Source: Squalus acanthias (Eukaryota). Taken from it: DNA of 64,000 nucleotides. Below, in pieces: positions 3,571-56,700 of the stretch; within the stretch, counting starts at the first letter, position 1, and each line of letters starts with the position of its first letter. The stretch is taken from positions 6,076,001 through 6,140,000 of the forward strand of contig CM059432.1 of NCBI GenBank assembly GCA_030390025.1. The letters are read 5' to 3'. The notes beneath the pieces were generated by a model. The model saw only the letters and a list, made by a program, of their open reading frames with translations, was not told the DNA's origin and searched no databases. The position numbers were made by a program, and so were the translations under genes.

Positions 3571-4069
3571 TTTTCACATATACATATATCCCTATATACA
3601 CATACATACATGCACACAATATATTTAAAAAAGAGCAAGAGAGAGAAACACACACACACACTCCATTTAAATTCATTTGTTGCACCTTGGCGGCCAAGTG
3701 CACCCAGATGTAAACCCAAGAAAATCCCCCATAACAAGGCCTCAGGAAAGGATACACTGAGCTGCTACATATGGCTAGCATACAAGAGTTGTCAAATGTG
3801 AAACTGCACTGAGATGCAATATTTGCTTTTCCTATTACAGGAAACTTTCGTTTATCCGGCACCCAAATAACCGGAATTCTCGCTTAACCGGCAAAAATCA
3901 TCCTCCGAAAACTCCTCTCAAATAACCGGCAATGTTGCCGATCCCGAGTCCGAGTCCGAGAACGCCGATTTAGTCAGTAGGGGTACTTTTCAAAAGTGCC
4001 ACTACTCGGCCTCCTGGCGCTGTCGCAAGTCCGAAACATTGCAGTAGCATGAGTAGATTCTCCCGCGCT

Positions 4070-4472
4070 GCCTGGAGTCTCTTCGGATCGGCCATTTTGC
4101 TGGGTGTCTCCCACGATGCTGGTAGTCTCTTCTGATCCACCATTTTGCTGGGTGTCTCCCACGCTGCTGGTACTGTAGTCTCTTCTGATCCACCATTTTA
4201 CTGTGTGTCTGCCACGCTGCTGGTACTGTAGTCTCTTCTGATCCACCATTTTGCTGTGTGTCTCCCACGCTGCTGGTACTGTAGTCTCTTCTGATACACC
4301 ATTTTACTGTGTGTCTGCCACGCTGCTGGTACTGTAGTCTCTTCTGATACACCATTTTACTGTGTGTCTGCCACGCTGCTGGTACTGTAGTCTCTTCTGA
4401 TCCACCATTTTGCTGTGTGTCTGCCACGCTGCTGGTAGTCTCTTCCTAGCCACCATTGTTCTGTGTGTCTTT
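4070..4472. repeat. 53-bp minisatellite (about 7 units) in the 5' region of the Tigger element
   Basis: Unit ccacgctgctggtactgtagtctcttctgatccaccattttactgtgtgtctg recurs at 4159, 4212, 4265, 4318, 4371 and 4424, flanked by shorter variants. Confidence 0.92.
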
Positions 4473-4509
4473 CCATCTTCATCGGCAATTATCTCCTCCA
4501 TCTTGCATT

Positions 4510-6262
4510 ATGGAATTCCCAAAAGCTGGTCCAAGCAAAAGGAAGAGAGTGGTCTTAACTTTAAAACAGAAAATCGAGATATGCCAACGACTAGGAAGGG
4601 GAGAGAAGCGTATCAACATTATGAATGAATTCAAAATCGGTTCGTCAACAATCTACGACATCAAATCGCAGAAGGATAAGCTGCTCAAGTTTTATTCAAG
4701 CTCGGAGACATGCAAGAGTGTAGAGAAACGGCATACGCTTCGTAAGCCTAAGCTTGAAGAGCTGGATACCGTGCTTTATGAATGGTTTTCTCTTAAGCGT
4801 TCAGAGGGTGTTCCAATTTCCGGACCCATGCTCATCGAGAAAGCGAAGGAATTCTACGATAGGATGGAGCTCACTGACAAGTGTGCTTTCTCCGATGGAT
4901 GGCTAACGTGCTTCAAGTTACGGCACGGGATACGACGACTCGATATTTCCGGGGAGAAGAAATCAGCTGATCACGAAGCCGCAGAAGAATACTGCAATTA
5001 TTTCAATCGGATTGTGCAGCAACATGATTTGTCGCCAGCACAGATCTACAATGCCGATGAAACTGGCTTGTTTGAGGTTTTTGCCAGAATCAACGCTTGC
5101 TGGGGCTAGTGAGGCTAATGCTTCAGGTTACAAGAAAAATAAAGATCGTGTAACCGTGCTAACATGTGCGAACGCTGCTGGATCACACCGGGTTAAACTT
5201 CTTGTTATCGGGAAGTATAAAAATCCCCGTGCATTTAAAAATGTGAGGCACTTACCTGTTGAGTACAAAGCTCAAAAAAATGCTTGGATGGATAAGGAAA
5301 TCTTCTCCGATTGGTTCCATCATATTTTTGTTCCATCTGTGAAGGAACATTTCCGCAGAATAGGGAAACCTGAAGATAGCAAATGCATTTTATTGCTTGA
5401 TAATTGCAGAGCCCATCCGCATGAATCCCAGTTGGTTTCGGGAAATATTTTCACCATTTATTTGCCACCAAATGTAACTTCTCTCATCCAGCCCATGGAC
5501 CAGGGCGTTATCCAAAATCTGAAGTGTCATTACAAGAAAGACTTCCTACGTAAACTGCTAAGCCAAGATGAGAATATTCAAGATTTGCAGAAGGAATACA
5601 ATATTAAAGATGCCATCTATAATGTTGCATGTTCCTGGAAATTGGTGAAAGGTCACACTCTGAGGCAAGCCTGGCGCAAATTGTGGCCTTCTGTAATGTT
5701 TGCTGAAGGTTCTTCTTCAGAGGAGGAATTTCATGGGTTCAGTGTTCGTCCCAAGAGTACAATAATGGAAATGGCTGGAATGGTGAAAAATGCAGGCCCA
5801 GCAAACCCTTTACGTCACCTCAGTGAAAGTGATATCGAGCAGTGGGTTGATGCAGATAGAGAAGTTGGTGTTGTGCATATGCTAAGTGATGATGAAATAA
5901 TTCAGAATGTTTTGAATCCAAAGAAAGAAAAGGAAAGCGAGATGGAAAGTGAAGAGGATGAGATTTCTGAAGAAGAGAAGATTTCTTGGGCTAAAGCTGC
6001 AGAAGGATTTTCTACAATCCTCAAATTTGCTGAAAGGCAGAATTGCTACACTGCACAAGAAGTTATGCAACTCCATATTCTGCATTCCACCTTTCTACAG
6101 AAAAGGCAAGAGTCCACTAAGCAAACCGACATCCGCAACATGTTTAAGAAAGCTTCCAAAAGAGTCGCAGCAGCGGAAGTGCCTGAAGAATCGGTGGAAC
6201 TGCGTGATCCTGATGACCCAGCTGGCACGGATATTTCTGATGAACCAGATGACTCGGAATAA
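4510..6262 (+). pseudogene. Tigger/Jerky-like transposase (CENP-B-type HTH domains + DD32D catalytic domain) with one frameshift
   Basis: ORFs 4456..5109 and 5012..6262 overlap at [12 protein letters not shown] (~5070). Triad [21 protein letters not shown], with 32 residues between D2 and D3. Confidence 0.9.
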
Positions 6263-20153: not shown

Positions 20154-20411
<258 letters not shown>

Positions 20412-20828: not shown

Positions 20829-22438
20829 TATGTTTCTTGTTCAGATGAGCCAATACAAATTATAGCTAATAGAGATCCAATTGCTGGGTCTCCACAGAAA
20901 AAACAAATAACTTGATTTTTTTTTAAGCACATCTACCTCAGAACTCCCATCGCTTTGCCCATTGTGAGCTGGACGTGGTGCTATTTTGTAACAATAGTGA
21001 TATTAATACCATGAATGGGAGAACATCAGGGCCACTGACCGACAGTGACTGAATAAGTTAAGTTCAGTTTTTATTGAATGCTGTTCTAGGATTTTTCAGT
21101 GAAAAGTGTAAATGAGTGCCTTTTAGTTTACATATATATTCCTCTATGTATTTAATTTTTATCCCTTACCAGTTTTAAAGTTGAGAATATACCGCAAGAT
21201 TGCATGCAAAATGTATCAGTGGAGTTAGACAACTTATTTAATAGTAATGGACCAGGAGAGTGGGGTGCAGCGGCATTGGCATGATACTTTGCTTTGGCCC
21301 TGGGCTTTGCCAGAACTTGGGTGGGAGTTCTGAAGTTTGGCAGCACTGCAGCGTCTTCCGTTTTTAAAAGTGTTCTTTTTAAAAAGATTCTTGTTTCATA
21401 TCACGTGGACTTAAAACAACCCTCCAATTGTACACCAGAGCAATATGCTCAGAGTTCTAGTGCCTAACCTTGTTCACATTAGCACCTCTCAATTTCCCTT
21501 CCATTTCTCTCTGATAATGACAATGTGGTAAGAAAGAAATTTAGGCTGGTACTGTATATTACTGCTCATTATGGCAGCTTCCTGAAACATGCGTTTTGAG
21601 CTCACATCTTTCTGACGACTTCCCAGTTCAATTACCTTGCTTATTACATCTATCACAAAATTCAGAATGGATCTATCAAAAATAAACACAAAACACATAA
21701 TAGGTATAACAGACGAGGTGGGATGCATTATCCATAGGGATGTAACCATGCATCACCAAATCTAGCACTTTAGGATGGATGGGGCCCACTGTGGAAATGA
21801 CATGTGTGGATTCAGGAGATACACCAGAGCTAATTATTCGAATTTCATACTTTCCTTTATGCATTTTCACTCTGTTTATTCCATATTTTTCCTGTTTGTT
21901 GTAGAATCAAGTAAATACAAGGAAAAAGTATGTAGCCTCAACCACAGCTCTGGGAAAACGATTCAGCATGCCATTTTATAACAGCAATGAACAAATTTGG
22001 GAAATTTGTCTGACAGTAGATGTAATTTTGACTGCTCCCATAGGACATGCAACTTATATTTGGGCCCCATTCTGCAATCAGGAAACTCCTGCTCCTTTAT
22101 TACTAGTATGTACACTGACTCAGTGCAGTCGTCATCACCTGCTTGCCCCCCCCCTTCAATAATCATCTGCTTCCAATTGTAACTCATACAAGGAATTAGC
22201 TTCATCGATATGTACACAAATATGATAGGTGCACAAAGACAATTCAGATGCACAGTATCTATAATTTAGGGACTGTGCAAGTATTTATATTCTGTATTGA
22301 TGAAAGCTGAATTCATGGCAATAGTGTATTATATTAATACTGCTTTATAAATCTTTGTATTGTTAGTTACTAAAAAAGTTTAAGGAATTTTAAAAAGTTA
22401 TATATAAATAAAAACTTAAAACAATTCCAGCAGGGCTC

Positions 22439-22710
22439 CATAAGAACTTAGGAAATAGGAGCAGGAGTAGGCCATTTGGCCCTTTGAGCCTGCTCCACCA
22501 TTCAATAACATCATGGCTGATCTTCCACCTCAACTCCACTTCCCCACCCTATTCCCATATCCCTTAGTTCCCTTAGTATCAAAAAATCTATCGATCTAAG
22601 CCTTGAATATACTTAACGACTGAGCATCACAGCCCTCTGGGGTAGAGAATTCCAAAGACTCACACAAGTGAAGAAATTTCTCCTCATTCCAGTCCTAAAT
22701 GGCTGACTCC
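22439..22710 (-). mobile_element. CR1 3' fragment
   Basis: Same tail as the copies at 7551 and 28074. Confidence 0.85.
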
Positions 22711-23583
22711 AACGGGTGCTTCTGATTCACTGAATGCAACCTTTTATTTTTTGTGCTTATTAAGGTGAAAGATGTTACTGTAATTCTGTAATTTCCCCCA
22801 CCCCCAACTCTCCCATGCCCTCTCGGAGATCATCTCTTCGACTAGAGCCACCTCCTGCTCCCTTTACCCCTCCCCTCATCTCTTGACCACTTAACATCCC
22901 CTCTTTGTTCCTCATGCTAGTTGATATTAATTATTCCCCAGTTCCCTTAGGCACTGTTTCTCTCCTGTTTAAAGCCACTGTCATCAACCCCTCTTCAATA
23001 ACTGATCCTGGACACATCTGACCTCTCCAACTGCAGCCACATTTCTAACCTCTCGGTCCTCTCCAAGGTCCTTGAATGTGTTGTCACCTCCCAGTTTAGT
23101 GCCCATCTCCAAGAACTTCCTGTTCAAATCCCTCCGATCAGGCTTCCCCTATCTCACAACACCAAGACGACTCTGGCAAAAGTCACAAAAGACATCCTCT
23201 GTGATTGTGTCCATGATGTGTTCTCTCTCACCGTTGCAGAATTTAATACTATGCCATCTTCCTTTATCACTTCTCCTCAGTTCTCTAGCTCCATAGAACT
23301 GACCCTACATGGATCCAATCCTATCTGAATGTAACAAATACATATCCAGTAATGGCTTCTTTTCCCACCACTGCACCATCACCCTCCGAGTCCCCCAATG
23401 ATCTATCCTTCAGCTTCCTCTTACTCACCTGCACGCTGCCCCTCAGTGATATCATCTGTCGGCAGTGTTAGCTTCCATGTGTGTACTGATGATCATGATG
23501 CGGAGATGCCGGTGTTGGACTGGGGTGGACAAAATTGAGAGGTCGCACAACACCAGGTTATAGTCTAACAGTTTTATTTTAAA

Positions 23584-23621
23584 TCACAAGCTTTCGGAGT
23601 TACAACTCCTTCGTCGGGTGA
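23584..23621 (-). ncRNA. Mirror-copy hammerhead motif, sense to the STK3 pre-mRNA
   Basis: Exact reverse complement of 24819-24856. Confidence 0.7.
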
Positions 23622-24181
23622 AGTGAGGAGATACAGAATCGTCAAAGCATATATAGATAGAGAACAATGCATGTGTAACTTACAATTGCAGACAACTAAA
23701 TTCAATCATCCTGACTGTTTATCTGCCGAGGTGTGATAAAGTTAATCAGGTCAGCCAGGAAGGTACCACATCAAAGACATAGCAAGATACAACTGAGACA
23801 ATGAGGTGGAATCGCATGGGGTCTAACGTGTCAAAAGCTGCCGTCTGTATGTAAAACGATTAACTTTAAAATTTTTACTTTTTTACTGGGAATCACATCT
23901 GTGAACAAGCCAACGACGACTCGAGTCCGGATCACGTCATGTATCGTGACATAAACCCAAGATCCCGATTGAGACCGTCTTCATGAGTGCGGAACTTGGC
24001 TATCAGTTTCTGCTCGATGATTTTGCGTTGTCGTGTTTTCCTAAGGCCGCCTTGGAGAACGCTTACCCGCAGATCCGAGGCTGAATGTCCTTGACTGCTG
24101 AAGTGTTCCCCGACTGGGAGGTAACAATCCTGCCTGGCGATTGTTGCGCGGTGCTCGTTCATACGTTGTCTCAGTGTCTGC

Positions 24182-24508
24182 ATGGTCTCGGCCAACGTTG
24201 TCTACCTCATACGTTGCAGGAAAGAATGCACCGCGGCATGGTACATCGGCGAGACCATGCAGACACTGAGACAACGTATGAACGAGCACCGCGCAACAAT
24301 CGCCAGGCAGGATTGTTACCTCCCAGTCGGGGAACACTTCAGCAGTCAAGGACATTCAGCCTCGGATCTGCGGGTAAGCGTTCTCCAAGGCGGCCTTAGG
24401 AAAACACGACAACGCAAAATCATCGAGCAGAAACTGATAGCCAAGTTCCGCACTCATGAAGACGGTCTCAATCGGGATCTTGGGTTTATGTCACGATACA
24501 TGACGTGA
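24182..24508 (+). pseudogene. 5'-truncated Penelope GIY-YIG endonuclease domain (mirrored on the minus strand at 23932-24190)
   Basis: NVVYLIRC...WYIGET...RMNEHR...HF...E..LI...GLN motifs, open to the stop codon. Confidence 0.88.
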
Positions 24509-24818
24509 TCCGGACTCGAGTCGTCGTTGGCTTGTTCACAGATGTGATTCCCAGTAAAAAAGTAAAAATTTTAAAGTTAATCGTTTTACATACAGACGGC
24601 AGCTTTTGACACGTTAGACCCCATGCGACTCCACCTCATTGTCTCAGTTGTATCTTGCTACGTCTTTGATGTGGTACCTTCCTGGCTGACCTGATTAACT
24701 TTATCACACCTCGGCAGATAAACAGTCAGGATGATTGAATTTAGTTGTCTGCAATTGTAAGTTACACATGCATTGTTCTCTATCTATATATGCTTTGACG
24801 ATTCTGTATCTCCTCACT

Positions 24819-24856
24819 TCACCCGACGAAGGAGTTGTAACTCCGAAAGCTTGTGA
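24819..24856 (+). ncRNA. Minimal hammerhead ribozyme motif in the Penelope pLTR (core variant CCGACGA)
   Basis: Stem I tcac/gtga, CCGACGA, stem II ggagt-tgta-actcc, GAAA, palindromic AAGCTT stem III. Confidence 0.7.
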
Positions 24857-25613
24857 TTTAAAATAAAACTGTTGGACTATAACCTGGTGTTGTGCGACCT
24901 CTCAATTTTATACTGATGATACCCAGCTCTACTTCTCTTGTCCCCACAATTACCTACATGCTGTCAGATTGCCTGCTCAATGTCAAGTCTCCTCCAACTG
25001 ACCATCGGAAAACTGAATCCATAGTTTCTCCCCTCTGCTATTTTCTTTACACAGCAGGTCAGTCGGCATTCGTAAAAAGAAAAGACAAGGTTATGATATT
25101 TTGGGAGTGTATGCTTCATCAGGTCTACAGTTTTAATGAAGGATACACGCATGCAATGTCATTATCTGTAAAGAGAAATGTCAAGTTCTGACTAACTTGA
25201 TCTGTATTTCCAGCATTTTCTATTTTTATTTCAGATATTTTTTTTAACTTTTTATAAATTGGAGATGGTTCAGAGAAGACTAAAAAGCTGACTGGCTTTT
25301 CAGCTCTAAGATTGTGGTTTCAATCCAGCCAAAACTATAGAAATGAAAGTTTACTGTCGGTAAAAGACATTTGGATACTCTCAGCCCAGCAGGTAGGGGG
25401 ACACTGCATAAAACTGTCCCTAATTCTATTCTTATTGGTAATGTTGCTGAGAAAGGCCACTGGGTAATGTCACAGTGGCACAGTAAAACTTCCCTTTGAG
25501 GCTGGGAATGAATCACATTGTTAGTATTGAGTAAAGGAAGTTTTACTCTGCATCTAACCATGCTGTACCTGAACGACATCAACTATTTAAGTTTAATCTT
25601 ATTGGTTACTTAC

Positions 25614-25778
25614 TGTCAGCTGACCTGCAACACCAAAATCCGCAAGCTTTGCATGACCTTCTGTATTCAGTAGGATATTTCCAGCTTTGATGTCTCGGTG
25701 GATTTTTCTCATGAAGTGTAGATATTCCAGCCCTTTCAAGGTGGATTTAAGAATTGTTGCTATTTCATCTTCTATTAG
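25614..25778 (-). CDS. STK3: STK3 coding exon (exon 5 equivalent): [55 protein letters not shown]
   Basis: 165 bp, translated by hand. Acceptor ttatag, donor gtaagt. Contains the HRDIKAGN catalytic loop and [14 protein letters not shown] is STK3-type. Confidence 0.93.
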
Positions 25779-39233: not shown

Positions 39234-41455
39234 CATAGAAACATAGAAGATAGGAGCAGGAGTAGGCCATTCGGCCCCTCGAACCTGCTCCGCCATTCAA
39301 TGTGATCATGGCTGATCATCCAAATTCAGTACCCTGTCCCTGCTTTCTCCCCATATCCCTTGATCCCCTTCGCCTTAAGAAATATATCTAACTCCTTCTT
39401 GAATATATTTAATGAATTGGATTCAACTGTCTTCTGTGGTAGAGAATTCCACAGGTTCACCACTCTCTGGGTAAAGAAATTCCTCCTCATCTCAGTCCTA
39501 AATGGCTTACCACTTATCCTTAGACTGTGACCCCTGGTTCTGGACTCCCCCGCCATCGGGAACATCCTTCCTGTATCTAGTCTGTCTAGTTCTGTTAGAA
39601 TTTTATAAGTTTCAATGAGAGCCCCTCTCATTCTTCTAAACTCTTGTGAATACAAGCCCAATCGACCCAATCTCTCTTCATACGTCATTCTTGCCATCCC
39701 AGGTATCAGTCTGGTGAATCTTCACTGCACTCTCTCCATGGCAAAAGCATCCTTCCTCAGATAAGGCAACCAAAACTGCACACACTACTCAAGGTGTGGT
39801 CTCACCAAGGCCCTGTACAACTGCAGCAAGACATCCTTGCTCCTGTACTCGAATCCTCTCGCTATGAAAGCCAACATACCATTTGCCTTCTTAACCGCCT
39901 GCTGCACCTGCATGCTTACCTTCAGCGACTGGTGCACAAGGACACCCAGGTCTCGTTACACTTCCCCTTTTCCCAATCTATTGCCGTTCAGATAATAATC
40001 TGCCTTCCTGTTTTTGCCACCAAAGTGGATAACCTCGCATTTATCCACATTATACTGCATTTGCCCAATCACCCAACCTGTCCAAATCATACTGGAGTTT
40101 CTCGGCATCCTCCTCACAGCACACACGCCCACCCAGCTTTGTGTCGTCTGCAAACTTGGAGATATTACATCTAGTTCCCTCGTCTAGATCATTAATATAT
40201 ATTGTGAATAACTGGGGTCCTAGCACCGATCCCTGTGGTACCCCACTAGTCACTGTCTGCCACTCGGAAAAAGACCCGTTTATTCCAACTCTTCGCTTCC
40301 TGTCTGCCAACCAGTTTTCTATCCAAGACAGTACCTTACCCCCAATCCCGTGTGCTTTAACTTTGCATGCTAATCTCTTATGCGGGACCTTATCGAAAGC
40401 CTTCTGAAAGTCCAAATACACCACATCCACTGGTTCTCCCTTATCTATTCTACCAGTTACATCCTCAAAAAATTCCAGTAGATTAGTCAAGCATGATTTA
40501 CCTTTTGTAAATCCATGTTGACTTTGTCCGATCCTGTCACTGTTTTCCAAGTGCTCTGCTATTACATCTTTTATAATGGATTCTAGTATTTTCCCCACTA
40601 CCGATGTCAGGCTTACCGGTCTATAATTCCCCCTTTTCTCTCTACCACCTTTTTTAAATAGTGGGGTTACATTAGCTACCCTCCAATCCATGGGAACTGT
40701 TCCAGTGTCTATAGAATTTTGGAAGATGACCAGCAATGCATCTACTATTTCTAGGGCCACTTCCTTAAGTACCCTAGGATGTAGATTACCAGGCCCTGGG
40801 GATTTATCGGCCTTCAATCCCATCAATTTCCCTAACACCATTTCCCTACAAATACTGATTTCATTCAGTTCCTCCCTCTCATTAGACCCTATGTTCCCCG
40901 ACATCTCTGGGAGGTTATTTGTGTCCTCCTTTGTGAAGACAGAACCAAAGTATGTATTTAATTGGTCTGCCATTTCTTTGTTCCCCATTATAAATTCCCC
41001 TGATTCTGACTGCAAGGGACCTACGCTTGACTTCACCAATCTTTTTCTCTTCACATATCTATAGAAGCTTTTACAATCAGTTTTTATGTTCCCTGCAAGC
41101 TTACTCTCATACTCTATTTTCCCCCTCTTAATTAATCCCTTTGTCCTCCTTTGCTGAATCCTAAACTGCTCCCAATCCTCAGGTTTGCTGCTTTTTCTGG
41201 CCAATTTATATGTCCTCTCCTTGGATCTTATGCTATCCCTAATTTCCCTTGTTAGCCACAGTTGAGTCACCTTTTTTGTTTTATTTTTATGCCAAACAGG
41301 GATGAACAAATTCTGTAGTTCATCCATGCGATCTTTAAATGTTTGCCACTGCCTATCCACCGTCAACACTTAAAGTAACGTTCCCCAATCCATCCTAGCC
41401 AACTCGCGCCTCATACCATCGTAGTTTCCTTTATTTAAATTCAGGACCCTAGTCT
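39234..41455 (-). mobile_element. CR1 LINE, same young subfamily as 1-2820
   Basis: ORF 40050..41369 is nearly identical in protein to ORF 518..1924. Same 3' UTR. Confidence 0.95.
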
Positions 41456-55475: not shown

Positions 55476-55836
55476 ATCAGATGATGATTATGGGTATGGC
55501 TCTGCGAGCGATTGGCTCTATGAGCACGAACCAGATGACATGGCAACTCAGCTGCGTCTCCCCTTCGGTGGTGAAATCCATGCTGGGTGAAACAGGAAGC
55601 CATCTGTACTGTCAATCATAGATCAACCCAGTCCTCCCCAACACCTGAGAACCCGGCCCTCCCATGGCCTGTGCATACTCGCCGGACATGACCTCGTGGA
55701 CGAGCCACGTTAAGACTCAAAACAGACACTCATTTAATGGGACCCATCCCAAGAGTGTATCCAAATAGCAAATGATGAAAGCATTGTTGAAGGTGCTAGC
55801 TTGGAAGAGTTATTGAGCCCAGAAATGTGGAGGGAA

Positions 55837-55976
55837 CGAGAGAGAGAGAGGGAGAATGAGAGGGAACAAGCGAGAGAGAGAGAATGAGCGTGAGAGAGAA
55901 AACGAGAGAGAGAGACAGAGAAAAAGAGAGAAAGAAAAAGAGAGATAAAGAGAAAGAGAGAGAAAAAGAGAAAGAA
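55837..55976. repeat. (GA)n/(GAAA)n purine microsatellite grown from a SINE tail
   Basis: Directly visible; contiguous with the DeuSINE tail. Confidence 0.85.
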
Positions 55977-56700
55977 AGACTTGCATTTATATAGCGCCTT
56001 TCATGACCTCAAGACGTACTTTACAGTCAAAGAAGTACTTCTGAAGTGTAGTCACTGTTGTAATGTAGGAAACACGGCACCCAATTTGCACACAGCAAGC
56101 TCCTACAAACAGCAATGTGATAATGACCAGATAATCTGTCTTAGTGATGTTGATTGAGGGATAAATATTGGCCAGGACACCAAGGAGAACTCACACAGAA
56201 TCCCCACAGTGCAGATAGAGGCCATTTCGGCCCATCGAGCCTGCACCTACACATATCCCACCCTATCCCCGGAACCCCACGTATTTAATACCCCTAACAC
56301 TAAGGGTCAATTTATCATAGCCAAATCAACCTAACCCGCACATCTTTGGACTGTGGGAGGAAACCGGAGCACCCGGAGAAAACCCACGCAGACACGGGGA
56401 GAATGTGCAAACTCCACACAGACAGTCACCCGAGGCCGGATTCGAACCCGGGTCCCTGGCGCTGTGAGGCAACAGTGCTAACCACTATGCCACCTGTGCT
56501 TCTTCAAAATAATGCTGTGGGATCTTTTACATCCACCTGAGAGAGCAGACGGAGCCTCGGGGTTGAACGTCTCATCTGAAAGAGGGCACCTCGGACAGTG
56601 CAGCGATTCTTCAGTACTGCCTAGGTATTGTGGTCAAGTCTCTGGAGTGGAACTTGAACCCACAACCTTCTTAGAGGCAAGAGAGCTACCAACTGAGCTG
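55970..56700 (-). mobile_element. Full-length DeuSINE interrupted by an HE1 SINE
   Basis: Tail at 55970-56192, head at 56500-56700 (cagctcagttggtagc...gggttcaagt on the minus strand). Confidence 0.8.
56193..56499 (-). mobile_element. HE1-type V-SINE (tRNA head, V domain, CR1-like tail)
   Basis: A box tggcatagtgg, B box ggttcgaatcc, V domain gtgtggagtttgcacattctccccgtgtctgcgtgggtttt, tail gggccgaaatggcct. Confidence 0.88.

Follow-up and report, generated by a model that had tools for sequence, protein, structure and literature searches.

The insertion at 23484 to 24920 of the window, the whole 64,000-nucleotide stretch of Squalus acanthias DNA that was analysed, is a real, clean and ordinary example of a published type of Penelope insertion. 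It is an endonuclease-bearing (EN+) Penelope-like element, truncated at the 5' end and inverted head to head. In the explanation that we hold with high confidence, the element was dead on arrival when it entered a decayed LINE in an intron of STK3, after the split from the related organism B, and it is probably fixed or common and most likely neutral. The parts of the insertion are as follows.

23484 to 23493, plus strand: left copy of the target-site duplication, 10 bp (direct-repeat script; the match of the organism B contig ends at 23493)
23494 to 23530, minus strand: Penelope tail of 37 nt, at the left end only, ending in ATG in the element sense
23531 to 24190, minus strand: left arm, a 5'-truncated element 3' end (repeat search), sense on the STK3 pre-mRNA strand
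24187 to 24190, no strand: 4-nt overlap common to both copies at the inversion junction (consensus of loose ends "before 24187")
24191 to 24249, plus strand: spacer of 59 nt, additional 5' sequence of the plus copy, in which the first half of GIY-YIG lies
24250 to 24909, plus strand: right arm, a 5'-truncated element 3' end without tail (repeat search)
24910, plus strand: one additional A, either untemplated or from a duplication that was longer and has changed at one position
24911 to 24920, plus strand: right copy of the target-site duplication, 10 bp, identical to the left copy (direct-repeat script)

The repeat search in the window returned arms of 660 nt each with 59 nt between them, and comparison by script counted exactly three mismatches (23566/24874, 23779/24661 and 23811/24629), all three G:C/A:T transitions and one of them at a CpG. 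At an identity of about 99.5%, a chance repeat of such length is far from plausible. The spacer continues the endonuclease reading frame, and loose ends in four of four runs from other samples (X1, X5, X9 and X6) show that the family sequence extends upstream of 24187; therefore the four nucleotides from 24187 to 24190 belong to both copies, and the plus copy, which starts at 24187, is 63 nt longer than the left-arm copy. No other copy of the element was found in the window (best other blastn match 28 nt, E 0.27). The anatomy given in the preliminary description, with its arms, a spacer of 59 bp, a 37-nt tail on one side and a duplication of 10 bp, was borne out by the repeat search and the script, and the plus copy indeed lacks the tail; its excess of "59 nt" becomes 63 with the overlap, and the description had overlooked this overlap, the hammerhead motifs and the LINE remnant at the insertion site. 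A T stands at both 23482 and 24909, and the A at 24910 could therefore also belong to a 12-bp duplication that later changed at one position. The ATG at the end of the tail is possibly the start of a next ORF. An origin from a MITE or another DNA transposon was ruled out, because each arm is the 3' end of a retroelement and the two insertion ends are not alike.

The coding capacity left in the insertion is limited to one feature.

24191 to 24508, plus strand: C-terminal GIY-YIG endonuclease remnant, 105 aa and a stop, without reverse transcriptase (RT) (PF01541, 24.2 bits with a cut-off of 22.6)

The PF01541 match, the shark relatives, the tail and the target-site duplication together support the Penelope identity that had been proposed. 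Among 82 candidates from a search of longer proteins, 52 were homologues of the GIY-YIG remnant, with shark proteins on top at 81-88% identity. The RT, absent from the truncated STK3 copy, was found in all three of the long relatives scanned (P0001, P0011 and P0030), and a Cys-x4-Cys-x2-Cys linker was present in the eight of eight relatives aligned, in a region that lies outside the truncated copy. In the available text of PMC8557442, a CX2-5CxxC linker between RT and endonuclease marks the Neptune and Nematis clades, and the accessible part of 10.64898/2026.07.22.740005 describes Neptune and Poseidon as widespread among vertebrates. As a part of the best explanation, the element would probably be of a combined Neptune/Nematis type, abundant in sharks. 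Metagenome contigs gave no DNA match to the element; an endonuclease relative was encoded in one of 142 metagenome stretches (L001, 394-702, 66% identity), a contig in which no long inverted repeat was found, and in none of 60 viral contigs.

A separate observation concerns shark host-gene isoforms that carry an endonuclease piece. Six of the 13 examined start the piece near residue 10-13 (P0008, P0021, P0023, P0036, P0042 and P0045), and a pyrimidine-AG stretch lies in the spacer at 24205-24230, where the piece of these six isoforms begins. This stretch may possibly be a recurrent cryptic acceptor; at the present locus it is antisense to STK3 and absent from the sense arm.

The host gene and the target site were defined by three features.

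25614 to 25778, minus strand: STK3 exon of 165 nt, in which 55 of 55 residues are the same as in human STK3 chains, with a score above STK4
20232 to 20399, minus strand: next STK3 exon of 168 nt, exon 6 by the same numbering as is used below for the exon before it
23306 to 23410, plus strand: remnant of a decayed LINE reverse transcriptase, on the upstream side of the target (best tblastn E 2.7e-5, queried with LINE frames from the window)

We take the exon at 25614-25778 to be exon 5 by human STK3 numbering; exons 1-2 and exon 7 were not found in the window. From its donor to the element there are 703 nt, in agreement with the earlier placement about 700 nt from exon 5, and from the element to the next STK3 acceptor about 3.1 kb; the intron measures 5214 nt, or 3787 nt with the element removed. 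The weak tblastn match and inspection by eye suggest that the target site is a decayed LINE. At the target duplication we noticed by eye an RT-like DD motif, and, again by eye, the LINE frame seems to run on through the joined empty site; no tblastn match crossed this joined site, and no further copy of the target LINE was found in the window by blastn. Elsewhere in the window, two LINE copies in opposite orientation (585-2820 and 39236-41455; 2237 aligned bases, 95.4%) bracket STK3 exons 5 and 6, which sum to 333 nt (165 + 168) in frame, and this opposed pair could favour back-splicing or skipping of both exons. The window also contains a 451-residue open frame with a DDE_1 transposase domain (4907-6259, plus strand; E 2e-56), presumably pogo/Tigger-like, a 53-nt tandem array at 4069-4490 and a GA-rich microsatellite at 55830-55991.

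How did one 3' end come to be inserted twice in opposite directions? At the junctions, one element 3' end meets the target at the end of the tail and the other meets it 37 nt inside, and the two 5' ends join over the 4-nt overlap. We lean towards a dual-priming route rather than fold-back. The endonuclease would cut both target strands 10 nt apart, each target 3' end would prime a cDNA, one at the end of the tail and one 37 nt inside, and both cDNAs would halt early, anneal over 4 nt and have their gaps filled in. The available portion of PMC11167929 reports a purified lizard Penelope protein, predicted to be a dimer, that cuts and extends both strands and begins reverse transcription at two sites bounding the tail. 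Dual priming by a protein that cuts both strands predicts such a set of features: a tail at one end, none at the other and a 4-nt overlap.

A credible route to which we give less weight makes the mirror half by fold-back self-priming: a cDNA or antisense RNA strand would loop over the 4-nt overlap, leave a 59-nt loop and copy itself, and the endonuclease would later trim one tail. The overlap and the short 63-nt offset suit a hairpin, and the letters at 23541, 23678, 23817 and 23861, a minority in the family yet common to both arms, point to a single template for both. In the accessible parts of the respective papers, PMC3846280 puts forward self-priming with an antisense template, and PMC8557442 resolution of the tail by the endonuclease. 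However, a 4-bp stem on a 59-nt loop would be weak, the would-be template copy has no tail, such that an additional trimming step is needed, and in vitro both target strands were extended from two RT start sites (PMC11167929, available portion). Dual priming and fold-back are not separable from one copy; a genome-wide tally of such junctions could settle the origin of Penelope inversions. A single copy has little weight alone and is a tidy data point for a described insertion type. In a literature that was mostly non-subscription, we found no paper on dual priming for Penelope inversions, on the STK3 locus or on the editing of shark Penelope palindromes.

The age and frequency of the insertion were approached through other samples. 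Among 24 runs screened, five DNA runs from two organism A samples contained more than 0.8 of the words, and contigs of four runs (X1, X5, X9 and X6) were placed on 22400-24249; what follows concerns the 32 pieces listed of about 117,900. Record 3 of X1 covers 23065-23517 with 0 differences, at a depth of 11.1 compared with 12.1 in the adjacent unique contig, and record 12 of X5 covers 23065-23516, also with 0 differences, at 17.3 compared with 19.1. The path from flank through duplication to tail is thus unbroken in two of two organism A samples from two studies, with the limits that the contigs enter the tail by 24 and 23 nt, less than the 31-letter threshold for a bridge, that rare variants are dropped in such contigs, that one sample may be the source of the assembly and that n is 2. 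An empty allele in heterozygous state would be expected to leave a contig break at 23493. From organism B, a 629-nt contig (X6 record 20) matches 23106-23493 with 11 changes and 5 gaps, and beyond 23493 has 212 more letters that were not placed on the insertion; with its direction taken from the numbering of records 2 and 11, this contig apparently fits an empty site, the 212 letters being the putative right flank.

At two of the three arm mismatches the family majority letter is that of the right arm (99% and 95% of the summed X1 depth; the third site lies outside the 40 rows listed), and therefore it is the left arm that changed at these two sites. The summed contig depth over the arms in X1, 0.65-3.8 million compared with 11-12 on the unique flank, is not a copy number. 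X9, which we guess to be RNA, had no cover on the unique flank at 22710-23019, with change types that resemble those of the DNA runs, and X6, with almost no cover at 23640-23887, was left out there. No RNA run was listed as a carrier of the words. As a side observation, in both samples the organism A contigs disagree with the window at 22789 and match it only from 22667; the mismatch and the start near 22665 reflect either small errors in the assembly or another haplotype.

Three changes in 660 bp amount to a divergence of 0.45% between the arms (Poisson 95%: 0.09-1.3%). At the epaulette shark mutation rate of 7e-10 per base per generation (PMC10587355, available part), itself tenfold uncertain, this gives an age of 3.2 million generations (0.67-9.5 million) with a rate taken from another species, an estimate that would be lower if the mismatches were copying errors at birth and higher with gene conversion. 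Set against the flank divergence between organisms A and B, 27 changes in 854 bases, the arm divergence places the insertion at about 14% (3-42%) of the time elapsed after they separated. The insertion probably arose after the split from organism B and is probably fixed or common in organism A.

The preliminary description had taken the insertion for very young and possibly polymorphic, and we regard as unlikely that it is very recent and still segregating, with the three mismatches being reverse-transcription errors at birth. Such a history would agree with the identical duplication copies, with arms 99.5% alike, with at least two of three changes on one arm, as with errors in one cDNA, and with the apparent lack of the insertion in organism B. 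Against it, both organism A samples run unbroken from flank to tail at a depth near that of the unique neighbour, and slow decay likewise gives three G:C/A:T transitions, one at a CpG. An insertion that is recent relative to the species split and probably fixed fits better with the unbroken left junction and the 0.7-9.5 million generations. Near-identical arms in a slowly mutating shark are no proof that an insertion is recent or segregating.

The insertion may also have consequences for the STK3 transcript, on which three further features bear.

23573 to 23578, minus strand: AATAAA hexamer in the element 3' end, in the pre-mRNA sense and within the predicted duplex
23584 to 23621, minus strand: minimal hammerhead motif on the pre-mRNA strand (fold and core pattern), with C instead of U at core position 4
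24819 to 24856, plus strand: second minimal hammerhead motif, identical to the first (fold and core pattern)

By the standard hammerhead numbering, the core C3 U4 G5 A6 N7 G8 A9 / G12 A13 A14 is matched in both copies at every position except U4, which is C; the fold has an extra base before stem II and a palindromic stem III. A search with Rfam gave no hammerhead match up to E 10. Hairpin-shaped Rfam microRNA models appeared below their own cut-offs and were dismissed as a by-product of the palindrome. According to the available text of PMC4209133, hammerhead pairs on opposite strands were already known from metazoan Penelope-like elements.

The duplex of about 660 bp foreseen for the pre-mRNA was supported as a prediction, in an in silico fold that pairs 659 of the 660 arm positions (657 Watson-Crick and 2 G-U pairs, 1 A-C mismatch) at -1349 kcal/mol. 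Across animals, ADAR acts on long near-perfect duplexes, also on those of palindromic repeats (PMC5625713, available part). In this model the duplex probably forms, is edited by ADAR and leaves with the intron; by analogy editing is likely, and editing alone is not a function. The effect of the insertion on STK3 is most likely neutral.

We consider it improbable that the duplex is functional or costly for STK3, that is, that it is hyper-edited or diced, masks the hammerhead and the AATAAA and shifts exon 5/6 splicing. The 659/660 predicted pairing speaks for such a role, as does the order of synthesis: the antisense arm is transcribed ahead of the sense arm and, because it is made first, the sense hammerhead and the AATAAA would be buried. 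So do, in the available part of PMC5625713, the heavily edited palindromic repeats of a frog and the many hyper-edited sites of elephant shark brain. On the other side, the donor is 703 nt and the next acceptor about 3.1 kb away from the element, a crude scan of both strands passed no site resembling a donor or acceptor, the apparent absence of the element in a close relative means no conservation, and minimal hammerheads hardly cleave as monomers (PMC4209133, available text), with a core base changed here in addition. Slightly less probable still is the full version, in which a fixed, lineage-specific 660-bp duplex in the Hippo kinase gene STK3 would be hyper-edited and shift exon 5-6 splicing while the antisense-first arm hides ribozyme and poly(A) signal. 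If true, the inverted layout would be a built-in route to tolerance of Penelope insertions in host introns, and should shark introns hold many such palindromes, much nuclear double-stranded RNA would come from them.

At the DNA level, extrusion of a hairpin or cruciform had been suggested. Fragility through a cruciform is unlikely, because in yeast inverted repeats arrest forks and attract nucleases less once the spacer exceeds 8 bp (PMC8053094, available part) and the spacer here measures 59 bp; hairpins in long single-stranded DNA at the palindrome are possible. That the palindrome is an assembly or library fold-back artefact is hardly credible: none of the contigs listed, which were placed as far as 24249, crosses the centre junction or reaches the right one, but a fold-back chimera is not expected to have a 10-bp duplication, a one-sided tail and three arm differences, the 59-nt spacer carries the reading frame onward, the left junction is present in two samples and the organism B contig departs exactly at the end of the duplication.

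The neutral Penelope-like insertion that we favour can be compared with several known systems. In L1 twin priming, both target strands prime, the second primer starts inside the RNA and the halves do not repeat each other. L1 twin priming and the STK3 insertion are both inversions with a target duplication; unlike in L1, both halves of the STK3 insertion copy one same 3' end. The Neptune and Nematis clades share with the STK3 copy a C-terminal GIY-YIG domain with conserved Cys and His residues, and close relatives have the RT and the zinc-finger-like linker, both of which lie outside the STK3 copy. The minimal hammerheads of metazoan Penelope-like elements, as presented in the available text of PMC4209133, have in common with the STK3 motif a short stem I, a palindromic stem III, an extra base before stem II and the G10.1-C11.1 pair, whereas the putative STK3 hammerhead has C at core position 4 in place of their U. 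Poseidon of Anolis carolinensis (PAc), in the accessible portion of PMC11167929, also has a tail and a hammerhead near the 3' end, and its two RT start points match both ends of the STK3 insertion; however, it belongs to another clade and prefers an ATT cut motif that neither STK3 end has, and its ORF begins inside the hammerhead, where the STK3 motif has ACG. The closest layouts are those of EN+ Penelope-like elements as far as the available parts of two papers describe them: an inverted 5'-truncated copy with a tail of 31 bp and duplications of 9-10 bp in PMC3846280, and an inverted truncated copy with a 30-40-bp tail at one end in PMC8557442, with target duplications of 8-10 bp across both. 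Pen2a_Av and Pen2_Av of Adineta vaga (PMC3846280) share with the STK3 copy the head-to-head inverted 5'-truncated layout, the 30-40-nt tail at one end, the 9-10-bp duplication and a short overlap at the inversion; unlike them, as they are described there, the STK3 insertion has neither RT nor tandem pLTR, and its halves are long (660 bp) and near-equal, such that the insert is almost all palindrome.
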